From contig JACPRZ010000043.1 in assembly GCA_016193485.1 (NCBI GenBank), forward strand, positions 96,944-160,943: a stretch of DNA of 64,000 bases, given 5' to 3'. A program made the position numbers and the translations under genes. A model generated the notes under the pieces. The model was given only the letters and a program-made list of their open reading frames with translations. It searched no databases and was not told the DNA's origin. Positions 23,955 through 64,000 of the stretch are shown here, piece by piece (within the stretch, counting starts at the first letter, position 1; each line of letters starts with the position of its first letter). The DNA is from Bacteroidota bacterium (lineage in GTDB: Bacteria; Bacteroidota; Bacteroidia; JACPRZ01).

Positions 23955-24010
23955 TGAATAGCGAAATTACGAAAATATAGGGCAGTCGGGCACAGAAGAG
24001 GGCGGAATGG

Positions 24011-24166
24011 CCTGCCTGCCGGCAGGCAAGGGCTACATTCCCATTGATCAGGTGTGAATTTTTTTGTTTTCCTGATCTGATGAAGTCCGATACTAGTCCT
24101 GACGTTTACGATCAGGATGCAGACATTTATCGTCTGCATCAGATTCATCGGACCGGCAGGCAGGGA
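24011..24166. repeat. complex palindromic region (cctgcctgccggcaggcaagg; nested insert with gatgcagacatttatcgtctgcatc; tail tcatcggaccggcaggcaggga)
   Basis: Shares gtccgatact(a/c)gtc and tcatcggaccgg(c/t)aggcaggga with 37746-37806, and the gacatttatcgtc core with 1298-1314. Confidence 0.6.
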
Positions 24167-24224
24167 TAAATGATTGCCTATGCTGCTGGAAAAAATACAA
24201 ATGTGATTACAAATGTGTTGGGGT

Positions 24225-27288: not shown

Positions 27289-27365
27289 TGTAAATTATCT
27301 CTTTAAAACATTGTAAAAATACCATTTATTCCTGTTTGGCGGTTGCGGGCGTAACTGCCGATGAT

Positions 27366-27446
27366 CTGGAGGGAGGTGACATTGAGGGATTTGATGTAGG
27401 GGATTGAGGGGATGAGGGAATGAGGAATTAATAACATGAGGGAATT
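27366..27446. promoter_or_regulatory. purine-rich tgaggga-type short repeats upstream of the Type IIG-like gene
   Basis: ggagggagg, ttgagggat, ttgagggga, atgagggaa, tgaggaatt, atgagggaat within 80 bp; a similar ttgagggagg and G-rich tract recurs at 29680-29840. Confidence 0.35.
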
Positions 27447-27565
27447 AAAGGATCAGAAGGGAACAAGAAAAGATATTTATTGGCATAGAGTTGGTAATTT
27501 TCGTTATGGAAAAAGAAAAGGGATAGTGGAGGATTACGATACAAAGAAAGATTAGGTAAATGGCT

Positions 27566-28282: not shown

Positions 28283-28285
28283 AAA

Positions 28286-29581: not shown

Positions 29582-29861
29582 AAGAATAATATTGAGCAGT
29601 TGTTAATTTGGCGGATTTGCAAGTTTTTTTTCGAACCATTAGCGAGCAACAAAGGTAGAAATTCTTCGGGAATGATAAGGTAGTCTTCGGGATTGGGAAT
29701 GTGAAATATTTTTGATGTTGATGTTTAGTCCTGGTCGGGACCGTTGAGGGAGGCAGCCCACCCTGCCCCTTCAAAGGGGGGGGAAGTCGCGAAGGGATGG
29801 AGATAGGCGGGTGAGGTTTGTCGGGTGGAAACACACGATTGCACAAGGGAAGCATTATTCT

Positions 29862-47323: not shown

Positions 47324-50300
47324 ATGAGGCGATATTTACTTTTTTGTTTATCTGTTCTCAGCACATTTTTGCCCCGTTTTGTATTGGCGCAGGCGGATAA
47401 TTGCAATACCCCCGCCACTACATTAACAGTTTATCCTGCTGTTTGCACTCCTTATTCCGGTTCTACTACTGGCGCAACACCTTCTTCGGGCCCTGCCTCT
47501 ACTTGCGGAAGCACTGATGACGATGTTTGGTTCAGGTACACTACTGCAGCCGGAAGCAGTTACGCATTTTTATATGTTGATCCTGCAAGTTCCGGTTTTG
47601 ATCCTGCTTTCCAGGCATTATCAGGCGCTTGTGGCTCTCAGGCAGTTCAGGCATGTGTTGACGCCTATGCCGGAGGCCAGGGTGAATCAGTAACATTAAC
47701 CGGATTAAGCGGAAGCACTACTTATTATATCCGTGTTTTCAGTTATGGTTCCGGCAGCGGAACAGACGGCTCTTTTACCGCGTGTGTTTTCAATGGAGCG
47801 CCTCCTGCCAATGATGTTTGCGGAGTTGCTACATCAGTTACTCTTACACAAAACGCTACTTGCTCGCCTACAGCCGGAACAACTGCCTGGGCGACTACTT
47901 CTGCAGGCATTCCCGCATGTGTGGGTACTGCCGATGATGATGTTTGGTATAAATTTACCACAGGTGCAGGAGTTACTTATGAAAGAATTGTGGTAGACCC
48001 AACCGGAAGTGGCGGAGCCGATTTAGAGTTTGACCCTGTAGTTCAGGTATTTTCCGGAACATGTGGCGCCTTTGTCAGCATTGCCTGCCAGAATGCAGTT
48101 GGTGCCGGTGGGACTGAAGATTTTTTTGTTAGCGGATTAACAGGCAGTACCACTTATTATGTCAGAGTTTATCACTATGGCTCATGGTATGCGAATAGAA
48201 CCGATGGAGGAAGTTTTGATATTTGTGTGATGGGCGGTTCTCCTCCTGCCAATGATAATTGTGCAGGCGCTCTGGCTCTTCCAACTAATCCCGGTTGTGT
48301 TGTTTTTGGAGGTTCTTCTACCACAACTTTTGCAACACAATCCTCTACGGGTACTCCTTGTTCCGGCTATAGCATTGATGACGATGTATGGTACAGTTTT
48401 GTGGCTATTAATTATACCCATACTCTTACGGTTGACCCAAATTCTGCAATGAATGTGCAGATTCAGGTGTTATCTGGCGCCTGCGGTTCTATTCTCTCTG
48501 AACAATGCCAGGATAATGCAGGGATAGATGGTACCGAAACAATGGTAGTGACCGGATTGACCATCGGCAATACTTATTATGTGAGAATAAGCCATAATGG
48601 AACTTTTTATGGCAGCAATGGTTCTTTTACTATTTGCAATGTGGCGAGCGCTCCCGTTGGAGGTGACGACCTTTGCAATGCAGTTGCATTACCGGCAGTA
48701 ACCTCTGCCTGCACTTATGGAACTTATGATAATTCTTCTATGCCCACCGGCTCAGGCGCGCTACCTGCAGGATGCAGCGAAAGGGCTAATGGATTCAGGA
48801 GACACATGTGGTTTAAGTTTGTTGTTCCAACCGGTGGAAAAGTCAGCATAAATGTAAAAGGTCTTACCGGGAATATTACAAACCCCACTGTGGCCGCTTT
48901 CTCATGGAATGGAGGGGCCTGTGGCACCCTTACTAATTTTACATTACTTTCCTGCAATAATGATTTTTGCAATGTTAATGGGGATTGTAATTACCATTCC
49001 GTACTGAATTTATCCGGATTATCGGTAGGGGCGACCACCTATTTCAAAGTATCTTCCGCTTCAACAGATAATGGAGCCGGAACATTTAAAATATGTGTTT
49101 CAGCGCCACTCAATGACGGTTGTCCTGCACCTCTTTTTGTTTGTGATTTAAATGGTTTTGAAGGCACCACCAGCGCAGGTTATACAATTGATAATGGAGG
49201 TCTTGAAGGATGGAGCGGAGGACCCTATGGTACGGGAGGAACAACCATTGAAAATAATTCATGGCTGCAATTTGAGGCATCTGATGTGAATGCATCCATT
49301 ACAATTACGGTATCTGATTGTTATTTGGATGATGGTGGTGCCGGGGAATATCAATATAATTGTTGTGGCGGTCCAGCCGGTTTTAACGGTGGAGGGCTTC
49401 AGGCGCAAATACTTGCCATGAATGGCGGAAATTGTTCGGGTTCTGCGGGATGGACTGCTATGTCTGTATTTCTAAATGGCATCAATGGTCCTAATTTCGG
49501 ATTAAACGGAACTTATACTGTTACCAACACCTCTGCTCTGACTGTTGGTCAGATTTACTATATTATGTTTGACGGCTTTGCAGGCGATGTTTGTAATTAC
49601 AAAATCAATGCGGCTACAGGTGTCGGCACTACTGTTATTGTAACCCCCCCGAGCAGCACCACTAATATCTGCAGCGGCAGTACGGCTACATTGGCAATTA
49701 ATCCGGTTGGTTCGGGAGGTACGGTAAACTGGAGTTCCTCTCCTTCCGGGTATGTATGCAATAATTGCGGTTCATCAGTGGTTGTTGACCCTGCTGCTTC
49801 TCCTGGCGTTACGGATGGTACAGTAACTTATTATGCTACGGTATCCGGCAATTGCATCACACCGCAAACAGTATCGGCAACTGTGAATGTAGAGCCAACT
49901 CCACCCACTCCAACGGTTGTTGCCGATCCACCCGGTTTTTGCGGGGTTACCAGCGTTTCCATGACCGCCTCTGCTGCCAACGCTACCGATTACGAATGGT
50001 TTGATGCCCTTGTCGGAGGCAATTCATTAGATGTTGGTCCGGTCTTCACTCCGGCAATAACAGATAATCAAATCGGTTCCTATACCGTTTATGTTGCTGC
50101 ATATAACACATCAGGTTCTCCCACTTGTACCACAGTAACGCGAGCCACGAAAACAGTAACCATTAATGCCTGGGATGGAAAAATAAAGTGGACAGGAAAT
50201 GCCCCTGCTGCTACTCCCAACTGGACAAATACTCTTAATTGGGCAGGTTGCACTCCGGGTTGCGCTGATGCCGTTGGTGTAATTATTCCTGACCAAACCA

Positions 50301-51808
50301 CGGTTCCCGGTCCGAATGACTGGCCTGTTATCAGCAGCAGCGTGACCACCGACAGTTTAAAATTAGAACCAAACGGAAAACTGGAATTCATTGGAGGCGC
50401 ATTGAGCATCTGCGGTTCATTCGGACACTTTGGAATAATAACTATTTCAGGTGGTGTGCCGACAATCACTTTTAACGGTACGACAAAACAATTTTATATA
50501 AAAACATCTACCGGCACGGGTGATTTACCTAATGTTGTTATCAACAATGCAGCGGGAGTCAGAGTAGTGGATGGTGCAGGTAATAAGGATATGGATATTG
50601 GAACCGCATACATTTTAACTTTAACAAATGGGATTTTAACTTCCACAAACACCCGGACGGTAAATGTTAAAAACAGCGCTGTTGGCGCAGTTACCGGATT
50701 CGGAACATCTTCTTATGTTGCAGGTCGCCTACAAAGGGCTATTACGGGAGGATTTCCAAAATCTTATGATTTTCCTGTTGGGACTTCCAGCGGTTACGAG
50801 TTGATGAATATTAATTTTACGGCAGGCACCACCATTACAAGCGCAACCGTCTATTTTGAGAAACCATCAAACGCACTGGGCACGGGACTAAGTGCCCTAT
50901 CCGAAGGCGGTGCATCTTTTATTACTACCGTTCCCGGTATTGTCGATGCAGGGGGTGGCACAAACGGAGGATTATGGACGGTATTGGCAAGCGGAGGAGT
51001 TGCCAATTATGATATGACTTTGTATGGCAGAATATATTCTAATGCAGGCGGATTTACCCACACCATTGTAAAAAGGGACCCGTTTTGCCCAGGCAACTGG
51101 ACCCTGTCGGGAACTTATGGCGGCAGTTCGGTTGGCGGAGGAATCATTACCGTAACACGAACCGGAATGAACGGCTTTTCGCAGTTTGGCATTGGCAGGC
51201 ACGATGCGGTATTTCCTATATCCCTGTTATTCTTTAATGCCGTATGCACGAGCAGGGGAATTGAATTATCATGGATAACCGCCAGTGAAATCAATAACGA
51301 TTATTTTACAATTGAAAGAGCAGCCCCCTCCCAACTTCCCCCATCAGGGGAGGGGATGAATTGGACTGTTATCGGAACAGTTAAGGGAGCAGGCAATAGT
51401 TCTACGATTCGCAAATATGAATTTACCGATCCCCTCCCCGATAGGGAGGGTAATGGAGGGGCTTTCTATTATCGCCTTAAACAAACCGACTTTGACGGTA
51501 CCCATGAGTACTTTGATGCCGTACCTGCCGATTGCAATTCGGAAAATGAATTCAAGGTCATTAACATAATACCTAACCCGGCCAAAGACAATATTTACAT
51601 CCTCTTTAGTTCAGGGAAGAAACTCACCGATGTGACAATTGTATTATTTGACGTGCTGGGTAATTATGTGATTAAAGAAAAATTTTTACCTATTGAGGGC
51701 TTTAACAGCAGGGAGGTTGACTTAAGTTTCCTGAATAACGGGGTGTACGTAGTGAATGTAAATAACGGAACAACCAATTTTATTCAGAGAATAGTGAGAC
51801 AGGATTAA
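47324..51808 (+). CDS. giant secreted repeat protein (adhesin-like) with T9SS type A C-terminal sorting domain
   Basis: Signal peptide; about four N-terminal repeats with PPAND(N/V)C...DDDVW(Y/F)...TYY(I/V)RV; C-terminus KVINIIPNPAKDNIYILF...GVYVVNVNNGTTNFIQRIV is a T9SS tail. Confidence 0.8.
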   Translation: MRRYLLFCLSVLSTFLPRFVLAQADNCNTPATTLTVYPAVCTPYSGSTTGATPSSGPASTCGSTDDDVWFRYTTAAGSSYAFLYVDPASSGFDPAFQALSGACGSQAVQACVDAYAGGQGESVTLTGLSGSTTYYIRVFSYGSGSGTDGSFTACVFNGAPPANDVCGVATSVTLTQNATCSPTAGTTAWATTSAGIPACVGTADDDVWYKFTTGAGVTYERIVVDPTGSGGADLEFDPVVQVFSGTCGAFVSIACQNAVGAGGTEDFFVSGLTGSTTYYVRVYHYGSWYANRTDGGSFDICVMGGSPPANDNCAGALALPTNPGCVVFGGSSTTTFATQSSTGTPCSGYSIDDDVWYSFVAINYTHTLTVDPNSAMNVQIQVLSGACGSILSEQCQDNAGIDGTETMVVTGLTIGNTYYVRISHNGTFYGSNGSFTICNVASAPVGGDDLCNAVALPAVTSACTYGTYDNSSMPTGSGALPAGCSERANGFRRHMWFKFVVPTGGKVSINVKGLTGNITNPTVAAFSWNGGACGTLTNFTLLSCNNDFCNVNGDCNYHSVLNLSGLSVGATTYFKVSSASTDNGAGTFKICVSAPLNDGCPAPLFVCDLNGFEGTTSAGYTIDNGGLEGWSGGPYGTGGTTIENNSWLQFEASDVNASITITVSDCYLDDGGAGEYQYNCCGGPAGFNGGGLQAQILAMNGGNCSGSAGWTAMSVFLNGINGPNFGLNGTYTVTNTSALTVGQIYYIMFDGFAGDVCNYKINAATGVGTTVIVTPPSSTTNICSGSTATLAINPVGSGGTVNWSSSPSGYVCNNCGSSVVVDPAASPGVTDGTVTYYATVSGNCITPQTVSATVNVEPTPPTPTVVADPPGFCGVTSVSMTASAANATDYEWFDALVGGNSLDVGPVFTPAITDNQIGSYTVYVAAYNTSGSPTCTTVTRATKTVTINAWDGKIKWTGNAPAATPNWTNTLNWAGCTPGCADAVGVIIPDQTTVPGPNDWPVISSSVTTDSLKLEPNGKLEFIGGALSICGSFGHFGIITISGGVPTITFNGTTKQFYIKTSTGTGDLPNVVINNAAGVRVVDGAGNKDMDIGTAYILTLTNGILTSTNTRTVNVKNSAVGAVTGFGTSSYVAGRLQRAITGGFPKSYDFPVGTSSGYELMNINFTAGTTITSATVYFEKPSNALGTGLSALSEGGASFITTVPGIVDAGGGTNGGLWTVLASGGVANYDMTLYGRIYSNAGGFTHTIVKRDPFCPGNWTLSGTYGGSSVGGGIITVTRTGMNGFSQFGIGRHDAVFPISLLFFNAVCTSRGIELSWITASEINNDYFTIERAAPSQLPPSGEGMNWTVIGTVKGAGNSSTIRKYEFTDPLPDREGNGGAFYYRLKQTDFDGTHEYFDAVPADCNSENEFKVINIIPNPAKDNIYILFSSGKKLTDVTIVLFDVLGNYVIKEKFLPIEGFNSREVDLSFLNNGVYVVNVNNGTTNFIQRIVRQD
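51321..51465 (+). repeat. two GC-rich palindromic mini-insertions lying in-frame inside the adhesin gene
   Basis: ccccctcccaacttcccccatcaggggagggg (51321-51354) and cccctccccgatagggagggtaatggagggg (51429-51465) encode extra residues (APSQLPPSGEGM; PDREGNGGAF) absent from the paralogous module in 39696-41339. Confidence 0.5.
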
Positions 51809-52604
51809 ATGAAACGGATACCATACATAACTATCATTTTACTAACCGCAGCAGGGTTGTGCAGCAATTTCATCATGGCACAAACTTACCTAATTTCTCC
51901 GACTGGCGATGGGGGATTTGAAACCGGAACCACTTTTGCAGCCAACGGATGGACTGCTGTAAATGGTGGTTCAGATAATTGGCAGGTTGGTGGTGCGGCA
52001 GGCGTTCAGGGTGGGGCACGTGCATCTAAATTCCACAACATATACTGCTTCAGGTGCGGCTACTGTGGTGCATTATTACCGTGATATAGCCATTCCTGCA
52101 GGTGCAAATTATGTATATCTTAATTATTACCTGAAATATCCCACCATAGATAACACTTATGATTATTTCTATGTTTATAGAACTACTACAGGCAATACAC
52201 CTGTAGCCGGTACTGTCCCTGGAGCCGGATACACAAACTTGTTTACTAATACAGCCACAACCTATGCTGGTTATACAGCAATGCCACAAGTTGACCTCAC
52301 CGCACTGGCAGGCACAACAGTTCGTTTGGTTTTTACTTTTAAAAATGACGGAGCATCACCATATGCCGACCCTGCTGTTGATAATATCTCACTGACTTAT
52401 TGTAATCCTACTACTTCACTTTCCCCTACGGGTGATGGGGGATTTGAAACCGGAACCACTTTTGCAGCCAACGGATGGACTGCTGTAAATGGTGGTTCAG
52501 ATAATTGGCAGCGCTCCCACCGACCCTGCAAACGGAACTTCCTACACTGCCAATGCCGCTTATGGTTCAGGAACAGCCGTAGGAGGAGGATTTTGCGTGT
52601 ATAA
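51809..52604 (+). pseudogene. 5' part of a giant GEVED-domain adhesin gene disrupted by frameshifts (signal peptide plus MAM/choice-of-anchor-J-like domain)
   Basis: Three overlapping ORFs in different frames; peptide SPTGDGGFETGTTFAANGWTAVNGGSDNWQ encoded twice by a direct repeat (51908-51985 and 52434-52511). Confidence 0.5.
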
Positions 52605-55600
52605 TAGTACAGGCACTTCGGTTGCCATTACTGCATTAACTGCGGGTACTACCTATTATTACAATATCTACGAATATGCCACTGCCGGCACGTGTTATAA
52701 TCTTACCGAGTTAGCCGGCAATGCTGCCACATCAGCCCTTCCTTCAGCAGCAGGGGCAATTTCAGGAACTGCCACTGTTTGCCAGGGAGCAAGTGGTGTG
52801 GCTTATTCCGTAGGAGCAGTCGGGGGCGCCACAAGTTATGGATGGGCATACTCTGGCGCAGGGTACTCTTGTGCGTCTGGTTGTGCTACAAATTCCATCA
52901 CTGCTAATTTTTCCGGTGCTGCTACCTCCGGCAACCTCACCGTTTATGGAATCAATGCCTGCGGCAACGGAACAGCATCAGCCAATTATGCAATCACAGT
53001 AAATTCAATTCCCGGCACAGCCGGAATATCATCGCCTTCCAACGGAGCCACCAATCAATGCTCTGCAAACCCAATCACCTCTTTGAATTGGACTGCCGCA
53101 TCGGGTTCTCCAACGGGTTATAAACTTTATTTCGGAACAGATAATCCGCCAACAAATATTGTAAATGGCACAAATCTGGGAGCAGTATTAACCTATACGC
53201 CTGCCTCATTAAATTCCAACACACTTTATTATTGGAAAATTGTGCCTACCAATGCCTGCGGAGATGCCACAGGCGCTTCTGTTTGGAATTTCACTACCGG
53301 AACGCCATGTTATTGCGCTTCAAACGGTGGTACTTGGACCGATGAATGGCTTGCACGAGTACAAATGAATACAAGTCCGGCACTGGATAATAACAGCGGA
53401 GGACCTCCGGCATCCGGATACACTAATTTTACAGGACTGGGTCCGTACACAGTGAACCCCGGCAGCACTTATAATTTTACAGGAACTGTCGGGTCTTCAG
53501 GTTCATGGAGTGAATATATAAGGGTTTATATTGACTGGAACCAAGATGGCGACTTTATTGACGCGAATGAATCTTACGACATTGGCTCAAGAACAGGCGC
53601 AGGAACAATAGTCAATACAATACTGGTACCCGCAGGCGCAACAGTTGGCGCAACAAGAATGAGAGTTATAGAAAAATATAGCGGATATGCTACGTCATGC
53701 GAACTGTATAGCTATGGCGAAACCGAAGATTATACTATCACAGTTGCAACCGCCTGCACCCCCCCCACCACACAGGCATCCGCATACACTTCAAGTAACC
53801 TTGCCAACACCACTATGACTATTGGCTGGACAAGAGGCAATGGAAACAATATAATGGTAATAGCCCGTGCCGGCAGCGCACCCACCGACCCTACAAACGG
53901 AACATCCTATACTGCTAATGCCAATTATGGTTCCGGAACAGCCGTTGGAGGAGGGTTTTGTGTATATAATGGAACGGGAACTTCTGTAAACCTCACCGGA
54001 CTCACGGCAAATACAATGTACTATTTTGCCCTGTATGAATATAACACAGCAGGCACTTGTTATTATATGACTGAATTAACCGGCAGTACTCAAACAGCCA
54101 ATAACGGTAATGATGTAAATCATCCCGGAGATGGCGGTACTGCTACCTATTACCAATGCTCCGGTAATTATTACGACCCGGGAGGACCGGGGGCGGGAAA
54201 TTATGCCGATAATATTACTGTTTCAACAACTACTTTTTATCCCTCCACTTCCGGAAGCAAAGTATCGCTCTTCTTTACTGTTTTTGATACCGAAAATAAT
54301 TATGACGGACTGATGATATATGACGGACCAAATACCGGCTCACCCCTTATTTCATCAGGATTAGGTGTCGGAAGCAATGCCACCACTTGTCCTGCGGGCT
54401 CATGGCGCGGCACCGGGTCGCCAGGCACCGTAACTTCCACCCATGCCACAGGCGCTTTAACTCTTGTTTTTAGATCCGATGCTTCGGTTAATTCTACCGG
54501 ATGGGCGGCATCTATTTCCTGTATTTCCTCCTGCACCCCGCCCACCACCCAGGCAACCTCCTTTACCTCAAGTTCCATTGCTCAAACTACTATGACCGTT
54601 GGCTGGACAAGGGGCAATGGCAATAATGTAATGGTAATAGCCAAAGCAGGTAGCGCACCCACCGACCCTACAAGCGGTACTTCCTACGCAGCCAATGCCG
54701 CTTATGGTTCAGGAGCAGCAGTAGGCGGTGGATTTTGCGTGTATAACGGTACAGGCACTTCGGTAAATCTCACTGCGCTTAGTTGTCTCAATACCTATTA
54801 TTTTGCTATTTATGAATATGCCACGGCCGGTACTTGTTACAATTTAACAGAATTAACCGGTAGTGCAGCCACCGTTCCTCCCGGTAACCAAACTACTTAC
54901 GGAGCAGGTACATGGATAGGATATGTTTATACATGGTCCGGTTCTCCGGATTTTACACCTGGTAACTATAAGGGATATGTTACCCAGGCAACTACTTTTG
55001 ACAGGAACCCGGCAGATGTAGCGGCTGGAGGAAACATTTGTGGCGGTCCTTATACTGATAATTTCACGATTCGATTTAAAATGAATTATAATTTCCCTGC
55101 AAACAATTATGTTTTCACTATCGGTGGTGATGATGGAGTAAGGTTGAGCGTAGATGGAGGTAGCACATGGATTATTGATGGATGGTCAGACCATGGTTAT
55201 ACTACGTACTCAAATAATCCTTGTGTTATTTTGAATGGTTCTACCAATCTTGTTTTTGAATACTATGAAAATGGTGGAGGCGCCCGTGTTTCCTTTTCAT
55301 ACACAACTGTCGGGGGTAGTTGTTATTGCGCTGCTGATGGCGCTACCTGCGATGAATACATTGGTAATGTAACGGTTGGAAGCATCAATAACAGCACTGC
55401 CTGTACCACTACTCCACAGGGATATGGCGACTATACAGGACAATCTACCGCAATGAATATTGGAACAGGATATTCAATAACTGTTACAAATGGGAATGGT
55501 TATGCAGATGATCAATGCGGCATCTGGGTTGACTGGAACCAGGATGGTGATTTTGCAGATGCCGGTGAAACAATCAGTGTTACGGGTACTCCCGGCTATG

Positions 55601-56619
55601 GTCCCTATACCGCCACCATAACACCTCCCGGAACTGCAACAGCGGGTAATACAAGAATGAGGGTTAGAATCCACTATAATGATGAATCTTCTTCTTCCTG
55701 CGGTTCGGCTGTTTGGGGCGAAGTGGAGGATTATACCATTAATGTTCTTGGTTGCGTGGCTCCAACCACTTCTGCAACTTCCATTACTTTTCCAAGTGTA
55801 CAATGCACGCAAATGAATGTAAGTTGGACAAACGGAAACGGAGGCAGAAGAATAGTGGTTGCCAAAGCAGGAGCAGCGGTTGCCGGAAATCCGGTTGACG
55901 GTACTGATTATGCCGAAAATTCTTCCTTTGGCACGGGAGGTACAATTGCAGCAGGTGAATATGTTGTTTATGACGGCACCGGCTCAGGTTTTACGCTTAC
56001 CAATCTTGCAAGCGGTACAACTTATTATTTCAAAGTGTTTGAGTATAATTGCACAGGGGCAAATATAAAATACCGCACTACTTCTCCGCCCTCTGCCAGT
56101 CAGGCGACCAACTCCCTGCCTGGAACTCCAAGTGTAATTAGCGGTTTGCAAGGTGTTTGTATTTATCAAACCGGAGTTTCTTATTCGGTAACTATTGCCG
56201 GAGCAACGAGTTATACATGGTCGTATTCCGGAACCGGATTCACCAATACATCCGGCAATGTAAATCCTATTGCTGCCGATTTTTCCGCCACGGCCACTTC
56301 AGGCAATTTAACAGTATATGGTACCAGCGCTTGCGGCAACGGACCAACCTCCGCTGCATTGGCAATAACTGTAAATACCACCCCCCCCACCTCTGTTGAT
56401 GCAGGCGAAGACCAGTATATCTGTGCAAATCCCGTTACAATGGCTGCAACCGGCACAGGAACCTGGACTGTATTGAATGGAACCGGTACCATCACTACTC
56501 CGTCAAATCCGACAACTACGGTAACAGTTACCAATCCTTCTACCTCTGTTACTTTCCGGTGGGGAGCCACCAACGGCTGCGGCACATCCTACGATGAAGT
56601 GGTAATTAACAGGCAGTAA
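52489..56619 (+). CDS. giant secreted repeat protein with FN3-like repeats and GEVED domains (main body of the disrupted adhesin gene)
   Basis: Three repeats of GSAPTDP(T)NGTSYTANAxYGSGTAVGGGFCVYNGTGTSV; GEVED-type modules ending YGETEDYTITV and WGEVEDYTINV; ends abruptly (VVINRQ*) without a T9SS tail. Confidence 0.65.
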   Translation: MVVQIIGSAPTDPANGTSYTANAAYGSGTAVGGGFCVYNSTGTSVAITALTAGTTYYYNIYEYATAGTCYNLTELAGNAATSALPSAAGAISGTATVCQGASGVAYSVGAVGGATSYGWAYSGAGYSCASGCATNSITANFSGAATSGNLTVYGINACGNGTASANYAITVNSIPGTAGISSPSNGATNQCSANPITSLNWTAASGSPTGYKLYFGTDNPPTNIVNGTNLGAVLTYTPASLNSNTLYYWKIVPTNACGDATGASVWNFTTGTPCYCASNGGTWTDEWLARVQMNTSPALDNNSGGPPASGYTNFTGLGPYTVNPGSTYNFTGTVGSSGSWSEYIRVYIDWNQDGDFIDANESYDIGSRTGAGTIVNTILVPAGATVGATRMRVIEKYSGYATSCELYSYGETEDYTITVATACTPPTTQASAYTSSNLANTTMTIGWTRGNGNNIMVIARAGSAPTDPTNGTSYTANANYGSGTAVGGGFCVYNGTGTSVNLTGLTANTMYYFALYEYNTAGTCYYMTELTGSTQTANNGNDVNHPGDGGTATYYQCSGNYYDPGGPGAGNYADNITVSTTTFYPSTSGSKVSLFFTVFDTENNYDGLMIYDGPNTGSPLISSGLGVGSNATTCPAGSWRGTGSPGTVTSTHATGALTLVFRSDASVNSTGWAASISCISSCTPPTTQATSFTSSSIAQTTMTVGWTRGNGNNVMVIAKAGSAPTDPTSGTSYAANAAYGSGAAVGGGFCVYNGTGTSVNLTALSCLNTYYFAIYEYATAGTCYNLTELTGSAATVPPGNQTTYGAGTWIGYVYTWSGSPDFTPGNYKGYVTQATTFDRNPADVAAGGNICGGPYTDNFTIRFKMNYNFPANNYVFTIGGDDGVRLSVDGGSTWIIDGWSDHGYTTYSNNPCVILNGSTNLVFEYYENGGGARVSFSYTTVGGSCYCAADGATCDEYIGNVTVGSINNSTACTTTPQGYGDYTGQSTAMNIGTGYSITVTNGNGYADDQCGIWVDWNQDGDFADAGETISVTGTPGYGPYTATITPPGTATAGNTRMRVRIHYNDESSSSCGSAVWGEVEDYTINVLGCVAPTTSATSITFPSVQCTQMNVSWTNGNGGRRIVVAKAGAAVAGNPVDGTDYAENSSFGTGGTIAAGEYVVYDGTGSGFTLTNLASGTTYYFKVFEYNCTGANIKYRTTSPPSASQATNSLPGTPSVISGLQGVCIYQTGVSYSVTIAGATSYTWSYSGTGFTNTSGNVNPIAADFSATATSGNLTVYGTSACGNGPTSAALAITVNTTPPTSVDAGEDQYICANPVTMAATGTGTWTVLNGTGTITTPSNPTTTVTVTNPSTSVTFRWGATNGCGTSYDEVVINRQ

Positions 56620-56656
56620 TTTTGTTTTAAAAAAAGCGATTGATTTAAGTTTATTT

Positions 56657-57682
56657 TTGCAACCTTCCAATCCCAATATGGGCGCTTACATCAAAGCCAT
56701 AAGTTATTACCTGCCTGAAGAAGTTCTTACCAATGCTGATTTAGTGAGGATTTTTCCTCAATTAACTGAAGTTGAAATTTTCAGGGCGACAGGGATTAGG
56801 AAAAGGCATATCACTCCACACGGCATCATTGGTTCTGATCTGGCATATCTAAGCGCCATTAAATTTTTTGATGAACATCCAATAAAAAAAAAAGAGATTG
56901 ATTTTTTACTTTTTTGCACCCATGGATCAGATTATAATGGGCCCTCTTCCGCCTGCATTTTACAAGATAGAATCGGATTGCCGAACCATTGCGGTGCAAT
57001 GGACATTCCTTATGGTTGTACCGGCTTTGTTTATGGAACCGCCATAGCGAAATCATTAATAGAAAGTAACCTCGCAAAAAATGTTTTACTGCTTACCTCA
57101 GATATTCCCACAACGGTTATTCGTCCGGAAAATCATGAGTTAAGGGCAATTTTCGGTGATGGAGCTGCCTGTACCCTTTTTTCCATTTCAAAAAATAATT
57201 CCTCAATAGGTGATTTTGTTTTTGGAACAGATGGCAGGGGTGCGAAAAACCTCATAGTCAGAAATTCAGGAAGACGGGAACCGGTAACTATGGAATATCT
57301 TGAAAAAAATTCGGATGCCGGGGGAATGTTAAACGGAACAATGGAAATGAATGGTGCTGAAATATTTATCTTCGCGGTTAAAGTGGTTCCGACCATGGTA
57401 AAACAGGTGCTGGAAAAAAACAATCTGCAACAGGATGATATTGATTTATTCATATTTCACCAGGCAAGCGGATTTTTATTGGAAATCCTCAGGAAAAAAT
57501 TAAAAATTCCGAAAGAAAATTTTTTTGTTTATCTTGAAAATGTAGGGAATACCGTTTCGGCAACAATACCGATCGCCCTGAAGGAAGCGATTAAGGAAGG
57601 AAAAGCGAAAACGGGCGATAAAATCCTTCTTGCCGGTTTCGGAATCGGATATTCATGGGCAGGAACGGTAATACAATTGTAA
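56657..57682 (+). CDS. 3-oxoacyl-ACP synthase III (FabH-like, KAS III) family protein
   Basis: Active-site Cys context DIPYGCTGFVYG, His in LFIFHQASGF, Asn in LENVGNTVSATIP. Confidence 0.8.
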   Translation: MQPSNPNMGAYIKAISYYLPEEVLTNADLVRIFPQLTEVEIFRATGIRKRHITPHGIIGSDLAYLSAIKFFDEHPIKKKEIDFLLFCTHGSDYNGPSSACILQDRIGLPNHCGAMDIPYGCTGFVYGTAIAKSLIESNLAKNVLLLTSDIPTTVIRPENHELRAIFGDGAACTLFSISKNNSSIGDFVFGTDGRGAKNLIVRNSGRREPVTMEYLEKNSDAGGMLNGTMEMNGAEIFIFAVKVVPTMVKQVLEKNNLQQDDIDLFIFHQASGFLLEILRKKLKIPKENFFVYLENVGNTVSATIPIALKEAIKEGKAKTGDKILLAGFGIGYSWAGTVIQL

Positions 57683-57687
57683 TTCAG

Positions 57688-57945
57688 ATGTCGGACATCA
57701 ATGATTTTATTAAAAAAATTGAAGCGGAATTTGAAGAAATTTCCCCGGGTTCGCTTAACCCGGGAACTAATTTCCGTGAGATGAAGGATTGGAGTTCCAT
57801 GCACGCGCTTATCATCATCGCCCTCATTGATACTGAATATGGCATCTCGCTCAATGGTGAACATATGCGTTCTGTTTCCACCATAAAAGAATTATTTGAT
57901 TTAATCGGTAAAAAAAAAGTAACCCAGCAACATATTAATGACTGA
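57688..57945 (+). CDS. acyl carrier protein-like
   Basis: 85-aa acidic protein; helix II-like region MKDWSSMHALIIIALIDTEYGISL with candidate phosphopantetheine Ser; start taken at internal ATG 5 nt after the KAS III stop. Confidence 0.55.
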   Translation: MSDINDFIKKIEAEFEEISPGSLNPGTNFREMKDWSSMHALIIIALIDTEYGISLNGEHMRSVSTIKELFDLIGKKKVTQQHIND

Positions 57946-57960
57946 AAACTTGCCACTGAT

Positions 57961-57976
57961 CCCGATATCTATCGGG
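57961..57976. repeat. palindrome cccgatatctatcggg just after the ACP gene
   Basis: Identical to 46299-46314. Confidence 0.55.
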
Positions 57977-58203
57977 ACAGATTAAAAACAAAATAGATAT
58001 ATGTCTGAATTGTTATTCAAAGTGGAAACTCACAAAATAATGCGAACCCTAAATTATCTTGCTGCTTCCAAACTAAAAGTCGGATTAATCGTAAATTTCG
58101 GGAAAGATTTTTTAGAATGGAAAAGATTAGTATTATAAAAAATAATCCGTGCAATCAGTGGCTGCATTTTTTTTCTACTGAGTAGGCACAAAAAAAATCC
58201 TGA

Positions 58204-59265
58204 ATGGCGGTTTTTTCAATACCCGGTGCAAAAATTTCTGGAATATCCGCCTGTGTTCCTTCTGAAATCAGGTATACGAAAAATTACGACAGGATGAGCG
58301 AAAATGAAAAGAATCTCTTTATTAAAACGGTAGGAGTTGAAAGCCGAAGAGTAACCGGAAAGGGAATGACAACGCTTGATTTATGCGTAACAGCAGCCGA
58401 AAAACTTATTACTGAATTGGGATGGAACAGGAATGAAATTGAACTGTTGGTTTTTATCACTCAATCAAAAGATTATTACCTGCCCGGTAACGGCACCATT
58501 GCTCAGGATAAATTACGGCTAAGCAGGAATTGCATGGCATTTGATATTGGTCTTGGTTGTTCGGGATATATCTACGGGTTATCAGTGGCTGCAAGTATTT
58601 TGCGGGCTGCCGGAATTAAAAAAGCATTGCTGCTGGCAGGAGATATTTCCACCGTTAACACTTCGTACGAAGATAAAAGCGTATTTCCTTTATTTGGCGA
58701 TGCCGGCACTGCAACAGCCATTGAAAATAGTTCTGATTCCGGGAAATGGAGTTTTAATCTTTTCAGCGATGGTTCAGGGTTTGAATCCATCATGATCCCC
58801 GATGGCGGAATGAGAAACCGGATTTCGCAGGATTCATCGTTTGTTTACCGCACTTTTGAAAATGGAAATTCGCGGACTCCCTTGCATCTGGCGCTAAAAG
58901 GGATTGACATTTTTAATTTTTCCATCGGTGAAGTTCCCCGTTCTGTCAGAGAACTTTTGGCCTTTGAAAACAGAACTATCGGAGATTTTGATTATTTTAT
59001 CCTTCACCAGGCAAATAAACTGATGAATGAAACCATTCGTAAAAAACTCGGTATTGAAAAAAATAAAGTTCCGTATTCAATTCAAAAATTCGGAAATACA
59101 AGTTCTGCATCTATTCCTCTTACTGTAGTTACTGAACTGGGTCAGAAGGCAAGAGAAAATAATCTCTCGCTGTTTTTGAGCGGTTTTGGCGTTGGATTAT
59201 CATGGGGAAATGTATCGTTGAATACAAATCATATTGTTTGTCCTGAAATAATTAATGCCGGCTGA
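58204..59265 (+). CDS. 3-oxoacyl-ACP synthase III-like (KAS III family) protein, second copy
   Basis: Active-site Cys context FDIGLGCSGYIYG, His in FILHQANKL, Asn in QKFGNTSSASIP. Confidence 0.8.
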   Translation: MAVFSIPGAKISGISACVPSEIRYTKNYDRMSENEKNLFIKTVGVESRRVTGKGMTTLDLCVTAAEKLITELGWNRNEIELLVFITQSKDYYLPGNGTIAQDKLRLSRNCMAFDIGLGCSGYIYGLSVAASILRAAGIKKALLLAGDISTVNTSYEDKSVFPLFGDAGTATAIENSSDSGKWSFNLFSDGSGFESIMIPDGGMRNRISQDSSFVYRTFENGNSRTPLHLALKGIDIFNFSIGEVPRSVRELLAFENRTIGDFDYFILHQANKLMNETIRKKLGIEKNKVPYSIQKFGNTSSASIPLTVVTELGQKARENNLSLFLSGFGVGLSWGNVSLNTNHIVCPEIINAG

Positions 59266-60005
59266 TGATTGATTTAACCGGAAAAAATATTTTGATAACC
59301 GGTGCATCGTCCGGTATTGGAAGGGAAACGGCTATTCTGGCCGGTAACCTTGGTGCCGTGGTAACGGTGACGGGGAGAAATAAGAACCGCCTGGATGAGA
59401 CATTTCAGCGGCTTAAAGGGAAAAATAACCTGCAGTTTGTTGCCGATTTATCGGAAGAAAAAAATATCGTTGAACTTACCGGGCATCTTCCGGAATTTGA
59501 CGGGATTGTTCATTGTGCCGGAATAACCAGTCCGATGCCGGTAAAATTCATCAGGGAAAAGCATTTGCAGGAAGTTTTTAAAATAAATTATTTCGCGTCT
59601 GTTTTACTGACCGGATCTCTTTTGAGCAAAGGGAAAATCAAAAATGCTTCTTCCATTATCTTTGTATCATCCGTATCCACTCAACTGCCTTATTTCGGGG
59701 GAACAGCATACATTGCTTCAAAAGCGGCAACCGAATCCTATTGTAAGACATTGGCTTTTGAATTGGCCCCGCAAAAAATAAGGGTGAATTGCATTTCACC
59801 GGGATTGGTAAGGACCGCAGTATATGAAGAGATGAGAACCGGTTACGGAGACGAAAAAATGGAGGAATACGAAAAAAAATACCCGCTCGGGTTTGGCAAA
59901 CCGGCTGATGTTGCCAATGCCGTTGTTTTTTTACTTTCGGATGCTTCCGGTTGGATTACCGGCACCATAATCAATCTTGACGGAGGATTATTACTTGGCA
60001 GATGA
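59265..60005 (+). CDS. SDR-family oxidoreductase (ketoreductase-like)
   Basis: Rossmann motif ILITGASSGIGRE; catalytic YIASKAA (YxxxK); 1-nt overlap with the upstream gene. Confidence 0.85.
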   Translation: MIDLTGKNILITGASSGIGRETAILAGNLGAVVTVTGRNKNRLDETFQRLKGKNNLQFVADLSEEKNIVELTGHLPEFDGIVHCAGITSPMPVKFIREKHLQEVFKINYFASVLLTGSLLSKGKIKNASSIIFVSSVSTQLPYFGGTAYIASKAATESYCKTLAFELAPQKIRVNCISPGLVRTAVYEEMRTGYGDEKMEEYEKKYPLGFGKPADVANAVVFLLSDASGWITGTIINLDGGLLLGR

Positions 60006-60922
60006 AACCCGCAGCGTATTCCATTATCATTCCCGTTTATAATGGCGGAAAATTTTTGCCTGAACTTTTCCATCGGTTACTGACCATATGCAAAAATTAT
60101 GAAAAAACCGAAATAATTTTTGTGGATGACGGAAGTTATGATGACAGTTGGAAGGTAATTGAGAAAATCAAGGAAGAAAACAGCGATTTGGTTACCGGAA
60201 TAAAACTCTCCAGAAATTTCGGACAGCATAACGCCACTATGTGCGGGTTTTACCATTGCACCGGTGATTTTATTATTACCATTGATGATGACCTTGAGAT
60301 GCTGCCGGAAGATATTCCTCTTCTCATTGAAAAGCAAAAAGAGAATAATGCCGATCTGACTTATGGCATCAATGATAATTTTTCACACATTTCGCTTCGC
60401 GGGCTGCTTACCGCCACCTACAAACGTGCATCCTTACTGGAGGGGAGGTACAGGGGGAAAGGATCAGGTTTCCGGCTTTTAAAAAAATCTCTTGTTGAAA
60501 ACATTAAGAACAATACGGGGAATTTTGTTTTTATTGATGAATTTTGCATGTGGTACACTTCCAATATTGATTATGTAAATGTTCAATCTTCTTTTTCAGG
60601 AAAAAAGAAAAGTTCGGGTTACACCCTGGCTAAATTATCCGCGCTTACAAGAAAATTAATTGTCATATCCACTGTTATTCCCCTGAGAGTAATTACTAAT
60701 CTCGGCTTGATTGTGGCTGTAATAAATTTATTGCTGGGAATGAGAATTATCATTAAAAAACTCTTTTTCAACGTTCCCCTCGGGTACACTTCTATTATTG
60801 TGGGCATCTTATTTTCCACCGGGTTAATTATGTTCAGCATCGGTATTTTGGGAGAATACCTTGGCATTGTCGTTCGCTCCGTTACAAAAATGCCGCCATT
60901 CAATATTGATAAAAAAATATGA
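60002..60922 (+). CDS. GT2-family polyprenyl-phosphate glycosyltransferase (GtrB/ArnC/DPM1-like)
   Basis: YSIIIPVYNGG...IIFVDDGSYDDS...ITIDDDLE (GT-A DxD fold) with two C-terminal TM helices. Confidence 0.8.
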   Translation: MKPAAYSIIIPVYNGGKFLPELFHRLLTICKNYEKTEIIFVDDGSYDDSWKVIEKIKEENSDLVTGIKLSRNFGQHNATMCGFYHCTGDFIITIDDDLEMLPEDIPLLIEKQKENNADLTYGINDNFSHISLRGLLTATYKRASLLEGRYRGKGSGFRLLKKSLVENIKNNTGNFVFIDEFCMWYTSNIDYVNVQSSFSGKKKSSGYTLAKLSALTRKLIVISTVIPLRVITNLGLIVAVINLLLGMRIIIKKLFFNVPLGYTSIIVGILFSTGLIMFSIGILGEYLGIVVRSVTKMPPFNIDKKI

Positions 60923-61527
60923 AACTGGAACAGTACGGAATAACCCTTTCAAGAATTACATCCGATGATATTGAATTGGTGAGAAACATGAGAAATGCAC
61001 CGCACGTCAGAAGCACAATGGCTTACCGGAGGTATATTACGAAATCAATGCAAAAAAAGTGGTTTGAACGTGTAAATAATCCGCTGAATTATTATTTGCT
61101 CATCTCGTATCGGAATGAAAAAATCGGAGTTATCAACATTAAAAATATCCGCTTGGATGAAAAATGGGGCGAAGGAGGTATTTTTATTCATGAAAAAAAT
61201 TACTGGAACACTCCTGTTCCGGTGTTGGCTTCACTGTGCCTGCTGAATTTTATTTTTTTTCAGTTAAAAATAACCGATAAATCATTCATAAAAATTTTAA
61301 AAGATAATTTGCCTTCCATCCGTTACAATAAAATACTTGGCTATGTTTTGGTCCCTTATCAGGAAAAAAAGAAGAATCAGCTCTATGTGCTCACTAAAGA
61401 TGCGTACATTGAAAAAACCGAAAAACTCCGTAAAGCCGCAACCATCTTTTCTGGTGATACTGAATTACCGAGATTAACCGGGGTAAAAAGTCCGTTGAAT
61501 CTTGAACAAATGAACATCATGCTTTAA
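60919..61527 (+). CDS. GNAT-like N-acetyltransferase (PseH-like), tentative
   Basis: LSRITSDDIELVRNMRNAPHVRSTM...WFERVNNPLNYYLLISYRNEKIGVINIKNI resembles the PseH/sugar N-acetyltransferase pattern; 4-nt overlap with the GT2 gene. Confidence 0.45.
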   Translation: MKLEQYGITLSRITSDDIELVRNMRNAPHVRSTMAYRRYITKSMQKKWFERVNNPLNYYLLISYRNEKIGVINIKNIRLDEKWGEGGIFIHEKNYWNTPVPVLASLCLLNFIFFQLKITDKSFIKILKDNLPSIRYNKILGYVLVPYQEKKKNQLYVLTKDAYIEKTEKLRKAATIFSGDTELPRLTGVKSPLNLEQMNIML

Positions 61528-61576
61528 AAATATCCTGACGTTCTACCCCTGGGGTATTTATTCACAAGTATAAATA

Positions 61577-62809
61577 TTACTTAAGCACATCTGCCAAACA
61601 CACAGGAATAAGTTTATTATCTTTTATTGTTACGTCAGGACAATTTAAACAATATTCAATTTCGCCATCATAAGTAACATTTGGCCCTTGCTGAAAGATC
61701 ATCGTTTTAAAATTCAGTGTAGAACCTGGTTTTAACAAGTTGGACAGAAATAATATTGTCTTCATTATTGTTAAAGGATTTAAACTGAACAATGCATACA
61801 ACAAACACTTGTAAAATATTTTTTTCTTGTTCCAGATAATATCAAAAGGATACTTTCCCGTTTTTTTTATATGCAACTGATTTCCAACTTTTGCAATATG
61901 TTTAAAATCAATATTCGTATGCAATAGTTTTGTTTTGCAATTTTTTAATTGGATAACAAATGTTAAATAAAATATCCATCTTTTCTCGGATATATTTTTA
62001 GTTGATGGGATATAACCATATGGTAATAAATTAAACTGATGATTTAAATATGCAATAACTTCTTCATTCAAAACAACTTCATTGTCTAAAATTGTAGGTA
62101 CAAGCCGGTTAGGCAGGATTGAGGATTTCGGGATATTGTTTGCAATTAATTCAAAATCCGTACAGCAGGTAACCAATAATGATTGATGCATTTTATTGTT
62201 AAAGAAGCAAGAAATAAATTCGCTAAAATTCGCCAAATCGCTTTTATACAAAGTTATTTCAAGTGCACACCGTATTCCGTTTTTAATAATCTTGTTTGAT
62301 ATATTTGTGCGTAATTCTATCAGATCCTTTCTGTCGAAATTTTCTTTCAAATCCGGTCTTTTTTGGTGCTCATCAATATGAAGAAAAATCTTATTTATTT
62401 TTGATTTTTTATACTCGGCAAGCTTTTTATCAGTTAATGCAAAACCGTTACTTAATACATCAACCAAAATCCCTTTATTTGAAATATATTTAATGACTTC
62501 TGATAATTCCGGGTGTAAAGTGGGTTCTCCGCCAGCAAGTGTTATCAAATGTAAATTTCTCTTTGTTATAATAAAATCAATTTCATTTTTGATGATTTCC
62601 AGAGGTTTTGTATAGTCAGATTGGTCTTTGTAACATGCTTTACAGGAGATATTGCATTTTTGATTTACTTCAATTACGGCATGAGGAATATTTTTCCCGC
62701 TAAATGGCATTTTATAGAGTTTATTTACTGCCACTGTATTTTTAATCTTAGGATTCATAATTATACAATAATAAAACAAACTTATTAATAACTTTATGAC
62801 ATAGGTCAT
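61577..62809 (-). CDS. radical SAM protein with Cys-rich C-terminal (SPASM/twitch-like) region
   Basis: CNISCKACY (CxxxCxxC) followed by a GGEP-type motif (LAGGEPTLHP); C-terminal cysteines (VTCC, EYCLNCPD...PVC); AT-rich. Confidence 0.7.
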   Translation of the reverse strand: MTYVIKLLISLFYYCIIMNPKIKNTVAVNKLYKMPFSGKNIPHAVIEVNQKCNISCKACYKDQSDYTKPLEIIKNEIDFIITKRNLHLITLAGGEPTLHPELSEVIKYISNKGILVDVLSNGFALTDKKLAEYKKSKINKIFLHIDEHQKRPDLKENFDRKDLIELRTNISNKIIKNGIRCALEITLYKSDLANFSEFISCFFNNKMHQSLLVTCCTDFELIANNIPKSSILPNRLVPTILDNEVVLNEEVIAYLNHQFNLLPYGYIPSTKNISEKRWIFYLTFVIQLKNCKTKLLHTNIDFKHIAKVGNQLHIKKTGKYPFDIIWNKKKIFYKCLLYALFSLNPLTIMKTILFLSNLLKPGSTLNFKTMIFQQGPNVTYDGEIEYCLNCPDVTIKDNKLIPVCLADVLK

Positions 62810-62893
62810 GTATTTTGAGTGCCTTTTTATTGAATTTTGGTTTTAAGTAAAATTTGTAGTAAACATTCATATTTTTGGGGGTAACTATATACA

Positions 62894-63343
62894 ATGGACG
62901 ACAATACTTTTAATACTGGAATTTACTTAGCTGAGAAAAGCTTTCAGAATATTTATAAAAAGCATAATTATTTTATGGAAAAGTATTTTAACCATTCCAT
63001 ACCAAAAAAAGGATTATCCACAGGGTTCATTCCATATAATATTGATTTTTCTAAATTAGCGCAACGGAATATTATTTTGACCGGGGATGCCGCTGGCCTT
63101 TGCGATAAAATGTTTGGTCATGGAGTTGATAATGCCATAATATCCGGATATCTTGCCATTGAAAGTATTTGTAATGCTGAAAATACAAATAACACATACC
63201 CGCTTAATGAAATTTACCGTTATAAATTAGGAAAGTATCTTAATAAATCACTTTCTTACGCTATAAAAACCTACGAAACTTTAAAGGAAAATAAAGTAAA
63301 TTATTTGGATTCATTGGAAGCGCTTATAAAACCAGGTGTCTAA
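62894..63343 (+). CDS. truncated FAD-dependent oxidoreductase (geranylgeranyl reductase/halogenase-like C-terminal fragment)
   Basis: IILTGDAAGLCDKMFGHGVDNAIISGYLA is the second FAD-binding motif of this family, but the N-terminal Rossmann part is missing (only 149 aa). Confidence 0.4.
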   Translation: MDDNTFNTGIYLAEKSFQNIYKKHNYFMEKYFNHSIPKKGLSTGFIPYNIDFSKLAQRNIILTGDAAGLCDKMFGHGVDNAIISGYLAIESICNAENTNNTYPLNEIYRYKLGKYLNKSLSYAIKTYETLKENKVNYLDSLEALIKPGV

Positions 63344-63354
63344 TTTGTTCTACT

Positions 63355-64000
63355 ATGAAATTTGCAGATCAATTTGATACAATTTTTTATTCTTCAAAAG
63401 TTAATGAAAATGTCAGGTTGATATTAAACGAGGGTTCTGCCCATGACTTATTTATCAACTATTTTGGAGTTAATTATAATGAAACAGACATTGTTTCGGT
63501 TAAGTTATATTTTTCTTTTTTTGAAAGACCATCCGAAAATATTTTAAGTGAATTTGGCATAAATGAAAAGCACAGAGGGCTTATCTTTACTAACTGGATG
63601 CCTTCAAAAAGGTATGATTTTATCCACCAGGGATTAACCCTTGGGTTAAAATGTTACCTTAAAAATAATGAGATAATAATTAATAAATACATCCATTTTA
63701 GAACAACAGAATTTGCATTAGGGTTTCCGGATGAAATAAAATTACTAAAGGAAGATAGAAACTGCCCCGGCATTTGCCTTGAATTTCATGAGGAGGTAAC
63801 CGAAGTAAAAAAATACTATTATATTACCTCTGCTGAAAATAAATCAAAAATCATTAAAAATTTTGGAATAGAAGCAATTGTTAAACATAACGATATAAGC
63901 ATGATAGAATACACAGAAAGCGAATTAGGGAGAAAAATAAACCTGGCGGTTAACAGGGCGGATACTGTTAAAACTATTTTAATGAAAGAAAATAATAAAT
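63355..64000 (+). CDS. hypothetical protein, 3' end beyond window
   Basis: Open frame from ATG at 63355 to the window end (215 codons, no stop); AT-rich; no motif recognised. Confidence 0.4.
   Translation, partial: MKFADQFDTIFYSSKVNENVRLILNEGSAHDLFINYFGVNYNETDIVSVKLYFSFFERPSENILSEFGINEKHRGLIFTNWMPSKRYDFIHQGLTLGLKCYLKNNEIIINKYIHFRTTEFALGFPDEIKLLKEDRNCPGICLEFHEEVTEVKKYYYITSAENKSKIIKNFGIEAIVKHNDISMIEYTESELGRKINLAVNRADTVKTILMKENNK

Follow-up and report, generated by a model that had tools for sequence, protein, structure and literature searches.

An AT-rich islet at the end of a Bacteroidota KAS III/ACP gene cluster encodes a predicted PT-barrel protein, a decayed reductase and a radical SAM protein, and may handle lipid tails

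Directly behind a fatty-acid-type gene cluster of a Bacteroidota bacterium (assembly GCA_016193485.1, contig JACPRZ010000043.1) lies a short AT-rich islet with three open reading frames (ORFs), and the locus raises the question of whether this islet is a dying remnant, a foreign passenger or a part of the cluster beside it. The stretch analysed, hereafter the window, comprises 64,000 nt (positions 96,944 to 160,943 of the contig, forward strand) with an overall GC content of 0.42, and the islet occupies its last part, from position 61577 onwards. The reading favoured here, with a probability of about one half, is that a cluster conserved in Bacteroidota has the islet as its variable accessory end, which would form a module that handles isoprenoid or lipid tails. 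This reading is preferred because the assignments of the three genes, to a PT-barrel, to a geranylgeranyl reductase (GGR)-type reductase and to a Tes-like radical SAM protein, converge.

The islet is clearly set off by its composition. The GC content steps from 0.36-0.43 to 0.27-0.31 at position ~61,600. The genes of the KAS cluster have a GC content of 0.36-0.43 and a third-position content (GC3) of 0.35-0.42, while all three islet genes have values of 0.29-0.31 and 0.27, respectively. The sharp compositional break that the initial annotation described after the KAS cluster is thus confirmed, and the three ORFs listed there (a radical SAM gene, a 149-amino-acid fragment with a GDAAG motif and an ORF running off the window) are all present in the places given for them. 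Four contigs, independently assembled from four sequencing runs, match the window with no mismatches, and the junction is therefore real and no assembly artefact. One independent contig begins exactly at 61578 and three stop 235 bp beyond the window, all at one base (L001-L003). Breaks in the assembly graph thus tend to fall at both edges of the islet, a hint that strains vary at this site, by presence or absence or by alternative cassettes. Flanking repeats and tRNA genes are absent from the islet edges and blastn matched nothing in the plasmid collection, and an origin from a mobile element or plasmid was rejected on these grounds.

The gene that ties the islet to the cluster is the third one. 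The gene order KAS III-ACP-KAS III-SDR-GT2-GNAT is common to L008, L010, L012 and L021; scans for further loci gave four from genomes and three from metagenomes. The third ORF had been described as unassignable and running off the window. It does run off the window, where 63355..64000 (plus strand) contains the first 215 of 269 codons and the gene ends 164 bp further on; the full length of 269 amino acids was read from an identical metagenome contig. It is, however, not an oddity of the islet, but a core gene of the KAS cluster with a predicted ABBA fold. It is present in the cluster of every relative with enough flanking sequence. In five distinct cluster types it lies 3' of the GNAT gene, in most loci directly and otherwise with one or two tailoring genes in between. 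After the GNAT gene it is the most constant gene of the KAS cluster in other Bacteroidota. Homologues of the protein were found in 26 clusters among 5.8 billion proteins, with 29-61% identity, and an exhaustive profile search for the family gave 176 representative clusters among 1.84 billion proteins.

The assignment of this protein is structural. Pfam and NCBIfam searches gave no match at E<=10, the stand-alone relatives tested likewise had no model, and a PDB sequence search recovered no ABBA protein. The AlphaFold2 model, built from an alignment of 26 sequences, has a predicted local distance difference test score (pLDDT) of 95.4 and ten strands in alpha-beta-beta-alpha repeats, which is the ten-stranded antiparallel barrel of the ABBA fold. 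The 41 best Foldseek matches of the model are all ABBA prenyltransferases; top rank is held by the cyanobactin-type peptide prenyltransferases KgpF, PagF, DciF, PirF and LimF (280-297 amino acids). Ten residues (N40, K50, Y52, K99, E143, K152, Y154, E185, K194 and Y247) are 87-100% conserved in 149 members of the barrel superfamily (89-100% for the eight other than N40 and E143), and they occupy alternating strand positions of the predicted model. Because of this periodicity the residues are taken to face the lumen, and we infer that the conserved Lys, Tyr and Glu would line a polar barrel lumen that binds a diphosphate. Some distant members of the superfamily (P0213, P0177, P0228 and P0274) are fused to Asp/Arg-hydroxylase domains or to O-methyltransferase domains of the FkbM or TylF type; these fusions tie the barrel to small-molecule or glycan tailoring.

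The second gene of the islet has lost its beginning. Homology to a geranylgeranyl-reductase-family flavoprotein extends over 62840..63343 (plus strand) and starts, in tblastn, at residue 192 of the 361-amino-acid orthologue in L014. An in-frame TAA codon (62882-62884) is found just inside a YFW motif, and the tblastn alignment runs across this stop. What remains is the ORF of 149 amino acids (62894-63343, plus strand) with the GDAAG motif, which matches positions 205-296 of 297 in TIGR02032 (E 1.4e-9) with 38 bits, below the cutoff of 158.8. With residues 212-356 of a 356-amino-acid L012 protein, the gene of which follows the L012 barrel gene, it shares 48% identity. Approximately 190 N-terminal codons, including those for the GxGxxG motif that binds flavin adenine dinucleotide (FAD), are deleted from the window copy; the orthologues retain the motif (IVGGGPSG in L014). 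The divergent intergenic region at 62759..62839 is 81 bp, versus 135 bp in L014, and is likely to be the left side of the deletion that took the 5' part of the reductase gene. A search with the 149-amino-acid ORF found only the ORF itself, and no stand-alone homologue of such a length. Judged by sequence, the flavoprotein fragment is a true pseudogene of a cluster gene, and the initial proposal of a truncated FAD-oxidoreductase of the geranylgeranyl-reductase type is borne out by the homology from residue 192 and the in-frame stop.

The family of this gene is best seen in the intact copies. The full-length L012 orthologue matches TIGR02032 from end to end (E 1.9e-41; 142.7 bits versus the cutoff of 158.8), and its next named matches are MenJ and archaeal lipid reductases. 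By such scores the intact reductases of the cluster are GGR-like, falling just under the TIGR02032 threshold. Four of the six cluster types have the reductase next to the barrel gene. Within the window copy, the sequence TATTTTTG at 62866-62873, about 20 bp 5' of the ATG at 62894, fits TAnnTTTG by eye. TAnnTTTG is the -7 promoter consensus of Bacteroidota, and the element could still drive the remnant ORF together with the barrel gene. A sigma-70 promoter scan, which does not cover Bacteroidota promoters, gave sites not above those of shuffled sequence.

A pseudogene in the middle of the islet invites the view that all of it is a decayed, dying insertion, in which the decay is so recent that it has not yet reached the radical SAM and barrel genes. 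The foreign composition fits this view, and so does the deletion, which also shortened the divergent promoter region. A second gene fragment is moreover found inside the cluster. It encodes the C-terminal 45 amino acids of a PDDEXK_3 (GxxExxY) protein (58001..58138, plus strand; Pfam PF13366 positions 83-116 of 117, E 1.1e-4) and sits in a 258-bp gap between the ACP gene and the second KAS III gene, which abut or overlap in the relatives; it is a second scar of decay or insertion in this copy of the cluster. However, the radical SAM and barrel genes are both full length and have kept every residue that is invariant in their families, and every relative has the barrel gene as a core gene of its cluster. 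Four samples moreover gave an identical sequence, and two related clusters naturally lack the reductase. A dying insertion is therefore unlikely, if well short of negligible. The earlier description of decayed tailoring genes holds for the reductase but not for its two neighbours.

The first gene of the islet encodes, as annotated, a divergent radical SAM protein on the opposite strand. The longest ORF covers 61577-62809 (minus strand, 410 amino acids); the ATG at 62758 is favoured as the start by the homologues and by independent gene calls, giving a gene at 61577..62758 (minus strand) that encodes 393 amino acids, with its stop codon at 61577-61579. The protein contains the sequence CNISCKACY, which forms a CX3CX2C motif at C35/C39/C42, a GGEP motif and a C-terminal CLNCP...C. 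The match to the Pfam Radical_SAM model has an E value of 1.4e-14, and only the core, residues 47-189 of the 410-amino-acid ORF, matches known models. Among the best 25 of 52 NCBIfam matches no equivalog cutoff was reached, the top score being 59.9 bits versus a cutoff of 490, and classification thus did not place the protein among the housekeeping enzymes, the outcome that the initial annotation had named as contrary to its own proposal. The family, of about 400 amino acids, is spread over many phyla, with members under the source names Bacteroidia, Riflebacteria, Deltaproteobacteria, Planctomycetes, Hydrogenedentes, Kiritimatiellia, Omnitrophota and Desulforudis. In a sample of 31 sequences CX3CX2C, GGEP, C373-P and C387 are invariant and C370 is conserved in at least 90%. 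A hydrophobic helix pair is found at ~311-342.

The Pfam search gave no SPASM or twitch model at E<=1, and the NCBIfam matches to SPASM proteins are restricted to core residues, roughly 40-200. The C-terminal cysteines conserved across the family are only C370, C373 and C387; this is therefore not a SPASM domain, and the proposed SPASM-like character has to be given up. The protein shares the CX3CX2C core with the SPASM and twitch maturases and lacks their C-terminal domain. When the family sequence profile was compared with solved structures, GDGT-MAS, which makes the tetraether lipids of archaea, came first (E 1.7e-17; the next match 7.5e-11), and the closest solved relative by fold of the AlphaFold2 model (pLDDT 90.9) is likewise GDGT-MAS. 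The protein is a remote, minimal relative of GDGT-MAS/Tes and no Tes orthologue. Two other groups of lipid enzymes do not fit. Gms (GMGT synthase) homologues are longer than 420 amino acids and group near AhbC/D, and the B12-dependent lipid radical SAM enzymes (Ted, methylases) bind B12. The bacterial membrane-spanning lipid synthase Mss would probably differ too, the Thermotoga protein being of the AslB/ChuR type.

The radical SAM gene is divergent from the reductase and barrel genes, and the same arrangement, with an intact reductase, is found in two metagenomic organisms, L014 and L027; the identity of their radical SAM proteins to the window's is 59% and 64%. A check of conserved synteny placed more distant members of the family elsewhere, in a conserved operon of other, probably anaerobic, bacteria. 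The operon has the order Fer4-2-oxoacid:ferredoxin oxidoreductase (OFOR) alpha/beta-hemerythrin-(68-amino-acid ORF)-radical SAM (L015 6006-11212, L017 5631-11239 and L023 3455-8212). In L023 the hemerythrin gene shares 11 bp with the radical SAM gene, and the identity of the operon radical SAM proteins to that of the window is 50% in Bacteroidia and 37% in a distant lineage. On the strength of this operon the radical SAM protein might be taken for an unrelated passenger, a housekeeping enzyme of anaerobic metabolism that happened to land beside the cluster. Such a passenger is quite improbable: the divergent pairing with the reductase and barrel genes recurs in three organisms with radical SAM proteins 59-64% identical, the Bacteroidia operon copies adjoin a TPR-PMT_2 protein that is 30-32% identical to that of the KAS clusters, and the radical SAM gene has the composition of the islet. 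In Riflebacteria (L025 4757-12174) a radical SAM homologue is found among genes for a cardiolipin-synthase-like PLD protein, a GNAT-like protein of 313 amino acids, a UbiA prenyltransferase and an OleC-like acyl ligase.

The radical SAM core also matches viperin, and a viperin-like antiviral protein in a defence islet was considered. This is very improbable indeed. The match reaches 52.9 bits versus a cutoff of 180 and is limited to about 100 core residues within 31-173; it does not extend over the full length of viperin with its C-terminal nucleotide-binding extension, the C-terminal half of 200 amino acids is unrelated to viperin and there is no kinase or other defence partner. PADLOC gave no match for the other two proteins (reductase remnant and barrel), and with partial core matches only, viperin and defence systems were rejected.

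The modification of a peptide or protein deserves more attention, because the barrel could be a peptide prenyltransferase of the cyanobactin type (F family) and the radical SAM protein a peptide maturase. The substrate would be either a small precursor peptide or a secreted protein, for example the giant PKD/GEVED surface protein beside the cluster. The best Foldseek matches, with their comparable size, speak for this, as do the companion enzymes of related clusters (Asp/Asn beta-hydroxylase, TMTC-like TPR glycosyltransferase and sulfotransferase), which belong to families that modify proteins in eukaryotes; a giant PKD/Ig-type protein furthermore flanks the cluster in all long loci. On the other hand there is no SPASM, twitch or RRE domain, and no protease, cyclodehydratase or leader-recognition gene is present. 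The search for precursor-peptide ORFs nearby, proposed in the initial annotation, gave no conserved short ORF; the sole candidate, of 40-48 amino acids at 62748-62894, is antisense to the reductase remnant and absent from L014. The radical SAM fold is nearest to a lipid synthase, and the barrel gene sits within a KAS III/ACP cluster. A peptide or protein cassette is thus rather unlikely. A SPASM/twitch system or a cluster for RiPPs (peptides that the ribosome makes and that are modified after translation) was rejected for the missing domain match, precursor peptide and partner genes. Where a remnant peptide- or lipid-modification cassette was first suggested, lipid is the better guess, and the peptide part is left with neither a precursor gene nor a SPASM domain nor a peptide-maturation partner.

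The giant protein was also noted in its own right. A giant repeat protein adjoins the KAS cluster in every long locus (window 47324-56619; L008 664-4032; L012 2016-5261; L010 15483-20810). It is of the PKD/Ig type, with CHU_C in the relatives and PKD_6 plus GEVED in the window copy, and the adjacent window protein at 47324-51808 carries a type IX secretion system (T9SS) sorting tail. Related clusters encode the TMTC-like glycosyltransferase and Asp/Asn-hydroxylase-like enzymes just named, and the giant surface protein could therefore be the target of the cluster.

The favoured reading, a module for isoprenoid or lipid tails at the variable end of the cluster, allows the three genes to be placed in one pathway. 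The product of the cluster would be a lipid or glycolipid-type molecule. The barrel protein would attach a prenyl chain, presumably taken from a prenyl diphosphate, to the scaffold made by the cluster, and the GGR-family flavoprotein would saturate this chain. The radical SAM enzyme would then take hydrogen from an unactivated carbon of the hydrophobic tail and cross-link the tail or modify it otherwise. The module is possibly crippled in the window genome, and a pathway that is still active there would have to do without its dedicated reductase.

The cluster itself was annotated with Pfam and NCBIfam, all genes being on the plus strand. It begins with a KAS III gene (56657-57682) and an ACP gene (57655-57945), followed by the second KAS III gene (58204-59265), an SDR gene (59265-60005), an ArnC-like GT2 gene (60002-60922) and a PseH-like GNAT gene (60919-61527). 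In the relatives the genes further downstream are variable tailoring genes, namely LpxO/OlsC-like Asp/Arg hydroxylases, a sulfotransferase, a carbamoyltransferase and a large TPR-PMT_2 protein. A short GC hairpin with a T-run behind it (61544..61556, plus strand), situated where the GNAT and radical SAM genes converge and ~20 bp short of the islet's left edge, may be a terminator; it is the sole terminator-like site in 61300-64000, a count not above that of shuffled sequence. No RNA family of Rfam was found at E<=0.1 in window 56000-64000. A second low-GC stretch was noted in the window at 24000-30000 (0.34-0.35 versus ~0.44), with several minus-strand ORFs.

The history of the islet can be read from composition and identity together. 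The carriers of related clusters have a GC content of ~0.30 overall. The barrel protein of the window is 61% identical to that of the BRH_c54 lineage, for which the other cluster genes give 33-57%; against two other lineages the barrel shows no such excess of identity. Because of the composition, the excess of identity to BRH_c54 and the contig breaks, the distal module was probably replaced, or acquired, by recombination from a low-GC relative. The reductase would have been lost later, through the 5' deletion plus the stop codon. The locus would thus show the evolution of the cluster under way, first by swapping of a module and then by loss of one tailoring gene.

The analysis shows the folds and homologies, and also that the reductase gene is a pseudogene, that the synteny recurs and that the composition breaks; the use of prenyl diphosphate, the substrate, the radical chemistry and the horizontal transfer are inferred. 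Several points weigh against what has been built here. None of the three families has a known activity, substrate or product, and both structure models come from shallow alignments (26 and 31 sequences). The barrel protein has no detectable sequence similarity to known prenyltransferases, its closest Foldseek matches are peptide prenyltransferases, so that a peptide or protein substrate is possible, and at least one ABBA protein of solved structure, PatF, is reported to be catalytically inactive. For the radical SAM protein, the Tes model NF045702 gives 42.4 bits versus a cutoff of 450 in a core-only match, and most members with inspected surroundings adjoin 2-oxoacid:ferredoxin oxidoreductase and hemerythrin genes, not prenyl genes. 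In two of the six cluster types the barrel gene occurs while the reductase and radical SAM genes are both missing, and the latter two are therefore dispensable. As to the transfer, the low GC content partly reflects amino-acid composition, and the gap in GC3 is modest (0.27 versus 0.35-0.42).

With these points weighed, the analysis yields a structural assignment for two unannotated families, a rare PT-barrel family and a widespread radical SAM family of ~400 amino acids. Their co-occurrence, together with a GGR-type enzyme, in a conserved KAS III/ACP/glycosyltransferase cluster points to a class of bacterial lipids, prenylated or modified in the tail, that would be new, a hypothesis that can be tested. 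It bears on which bacterial enzymes modify inert lipid tails without oxygen, and on the use of archaeal-type isoprenoid-handling enzymes by Bacteroidota. A far-reaching version, which we offer as speculation with the odds well against it, is that some Bacteroidota carry a counterpart of the last steps in the formation of archaeal membrane-spanning lipids: the PT-barrel, as a soluble enzyme, would prenylate a fatty-acyl or glycolipid scaffold, the GGR would saturate the chain and the pared-down Tes-like enzyme would join or cyclise inert carbons of the tails. If this is true, macrocyclic or tail-to-tail-linked lipids of a kind undescribed in bacteria would be made. The radical SAM family at large, which in bacteria of many phyla is linked to ferredoxin oxidoreductase and hemerythrin, would on this view be a class of enzymes for the modification of lipid tails that has gone unrecognised, relevant to the producers of bacterial membrane-spanning lipids.

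Four known systems serve for comparison. The ArnC/ArnT polyprenyl-phosphate sugar pathway resembles the cluster in that the window GT2 protein gives a full-length match to the ArnC model (E 3.6e-41), and in that related clusters close with a TPR-bearing GT-C protein of the PMT_2/TMTC-like kind. It differs in score, 141 bits versus the ArnC cutoff of 529, and in gene content. Two KAS III genes, an ACP, an SDR and a GNAT come on top in the cluster, as do variable hydroxylases, a sulfotransferase and a carbamoyltransferase, and no GT-C gene is seen within the window itself.

The ABBA prenyltransferases (KgpF, PagF, PirF, LimF, DciF and PatF; CymD, NphB and CloQ) share with the barrel model the ten-stranded antiparallel barrel and conserved Lys, Tyr and Glu at strand positions predicted to point inwards, and the F family is also similar in size (280-297 amino acids versus 269 in the window). 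Unlike them, the barrel protein has no sequence match in Pfam, NCBIfam or PDB and is only 5-12% identical to these enzymes, and its gene lies in a KAS III/ACP/GT2/GNAT cluster and not in a RiPP, indole-alkaloid or meroterpenoid cluster. In the geranylgeranyl reductase family (TIGR02032; archaeal DGGGPL reductase, ChlP/BchP and MenJ) the whole model is matched by the full-length orthologues and GDAAG is retained even in the window remnant, whereas the window copy lacks the N-terminal 190 residues, GxGxxG included, and has an in-frame stop.

The comparison with GDGT-MAS/Tes (MJ0619; PDB 7TOM/7TOL) is the closest one for the radical SAM protein. GDGT-MAS has a rubredoxin domain, an N-terminal auxiliary cluster and a radical SAM core, and next to a hydrophobic lipid tunnel it has a C-terminal auxiliary cluster; this last cluster is site-differentiated and is accompanied by amphipathic lipid-binding helices (PMC9433317). 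The window protein is ~100 residues shorter at the N-terminus, with neither the rubredoxin domain nor the N-terminal auxiliary cluster; it starts ~34 residues before CX3CX2C and has no N-terminal cysteines. It has no evident equivalent of the labile Met439, its identity to GDGT-MAS is only 19%, its host is bacterial and its gene belongs to a fatty-acid-type cluster. Bacterial Tes homologues have been defined at E<1e-50 (PMC8941075), and the window protein is not among them. What the two proteins have in common is the overall plan: behind the radical SAM core comes a C-terminal domain that contains hydrophobic helices and conserved cysteines.

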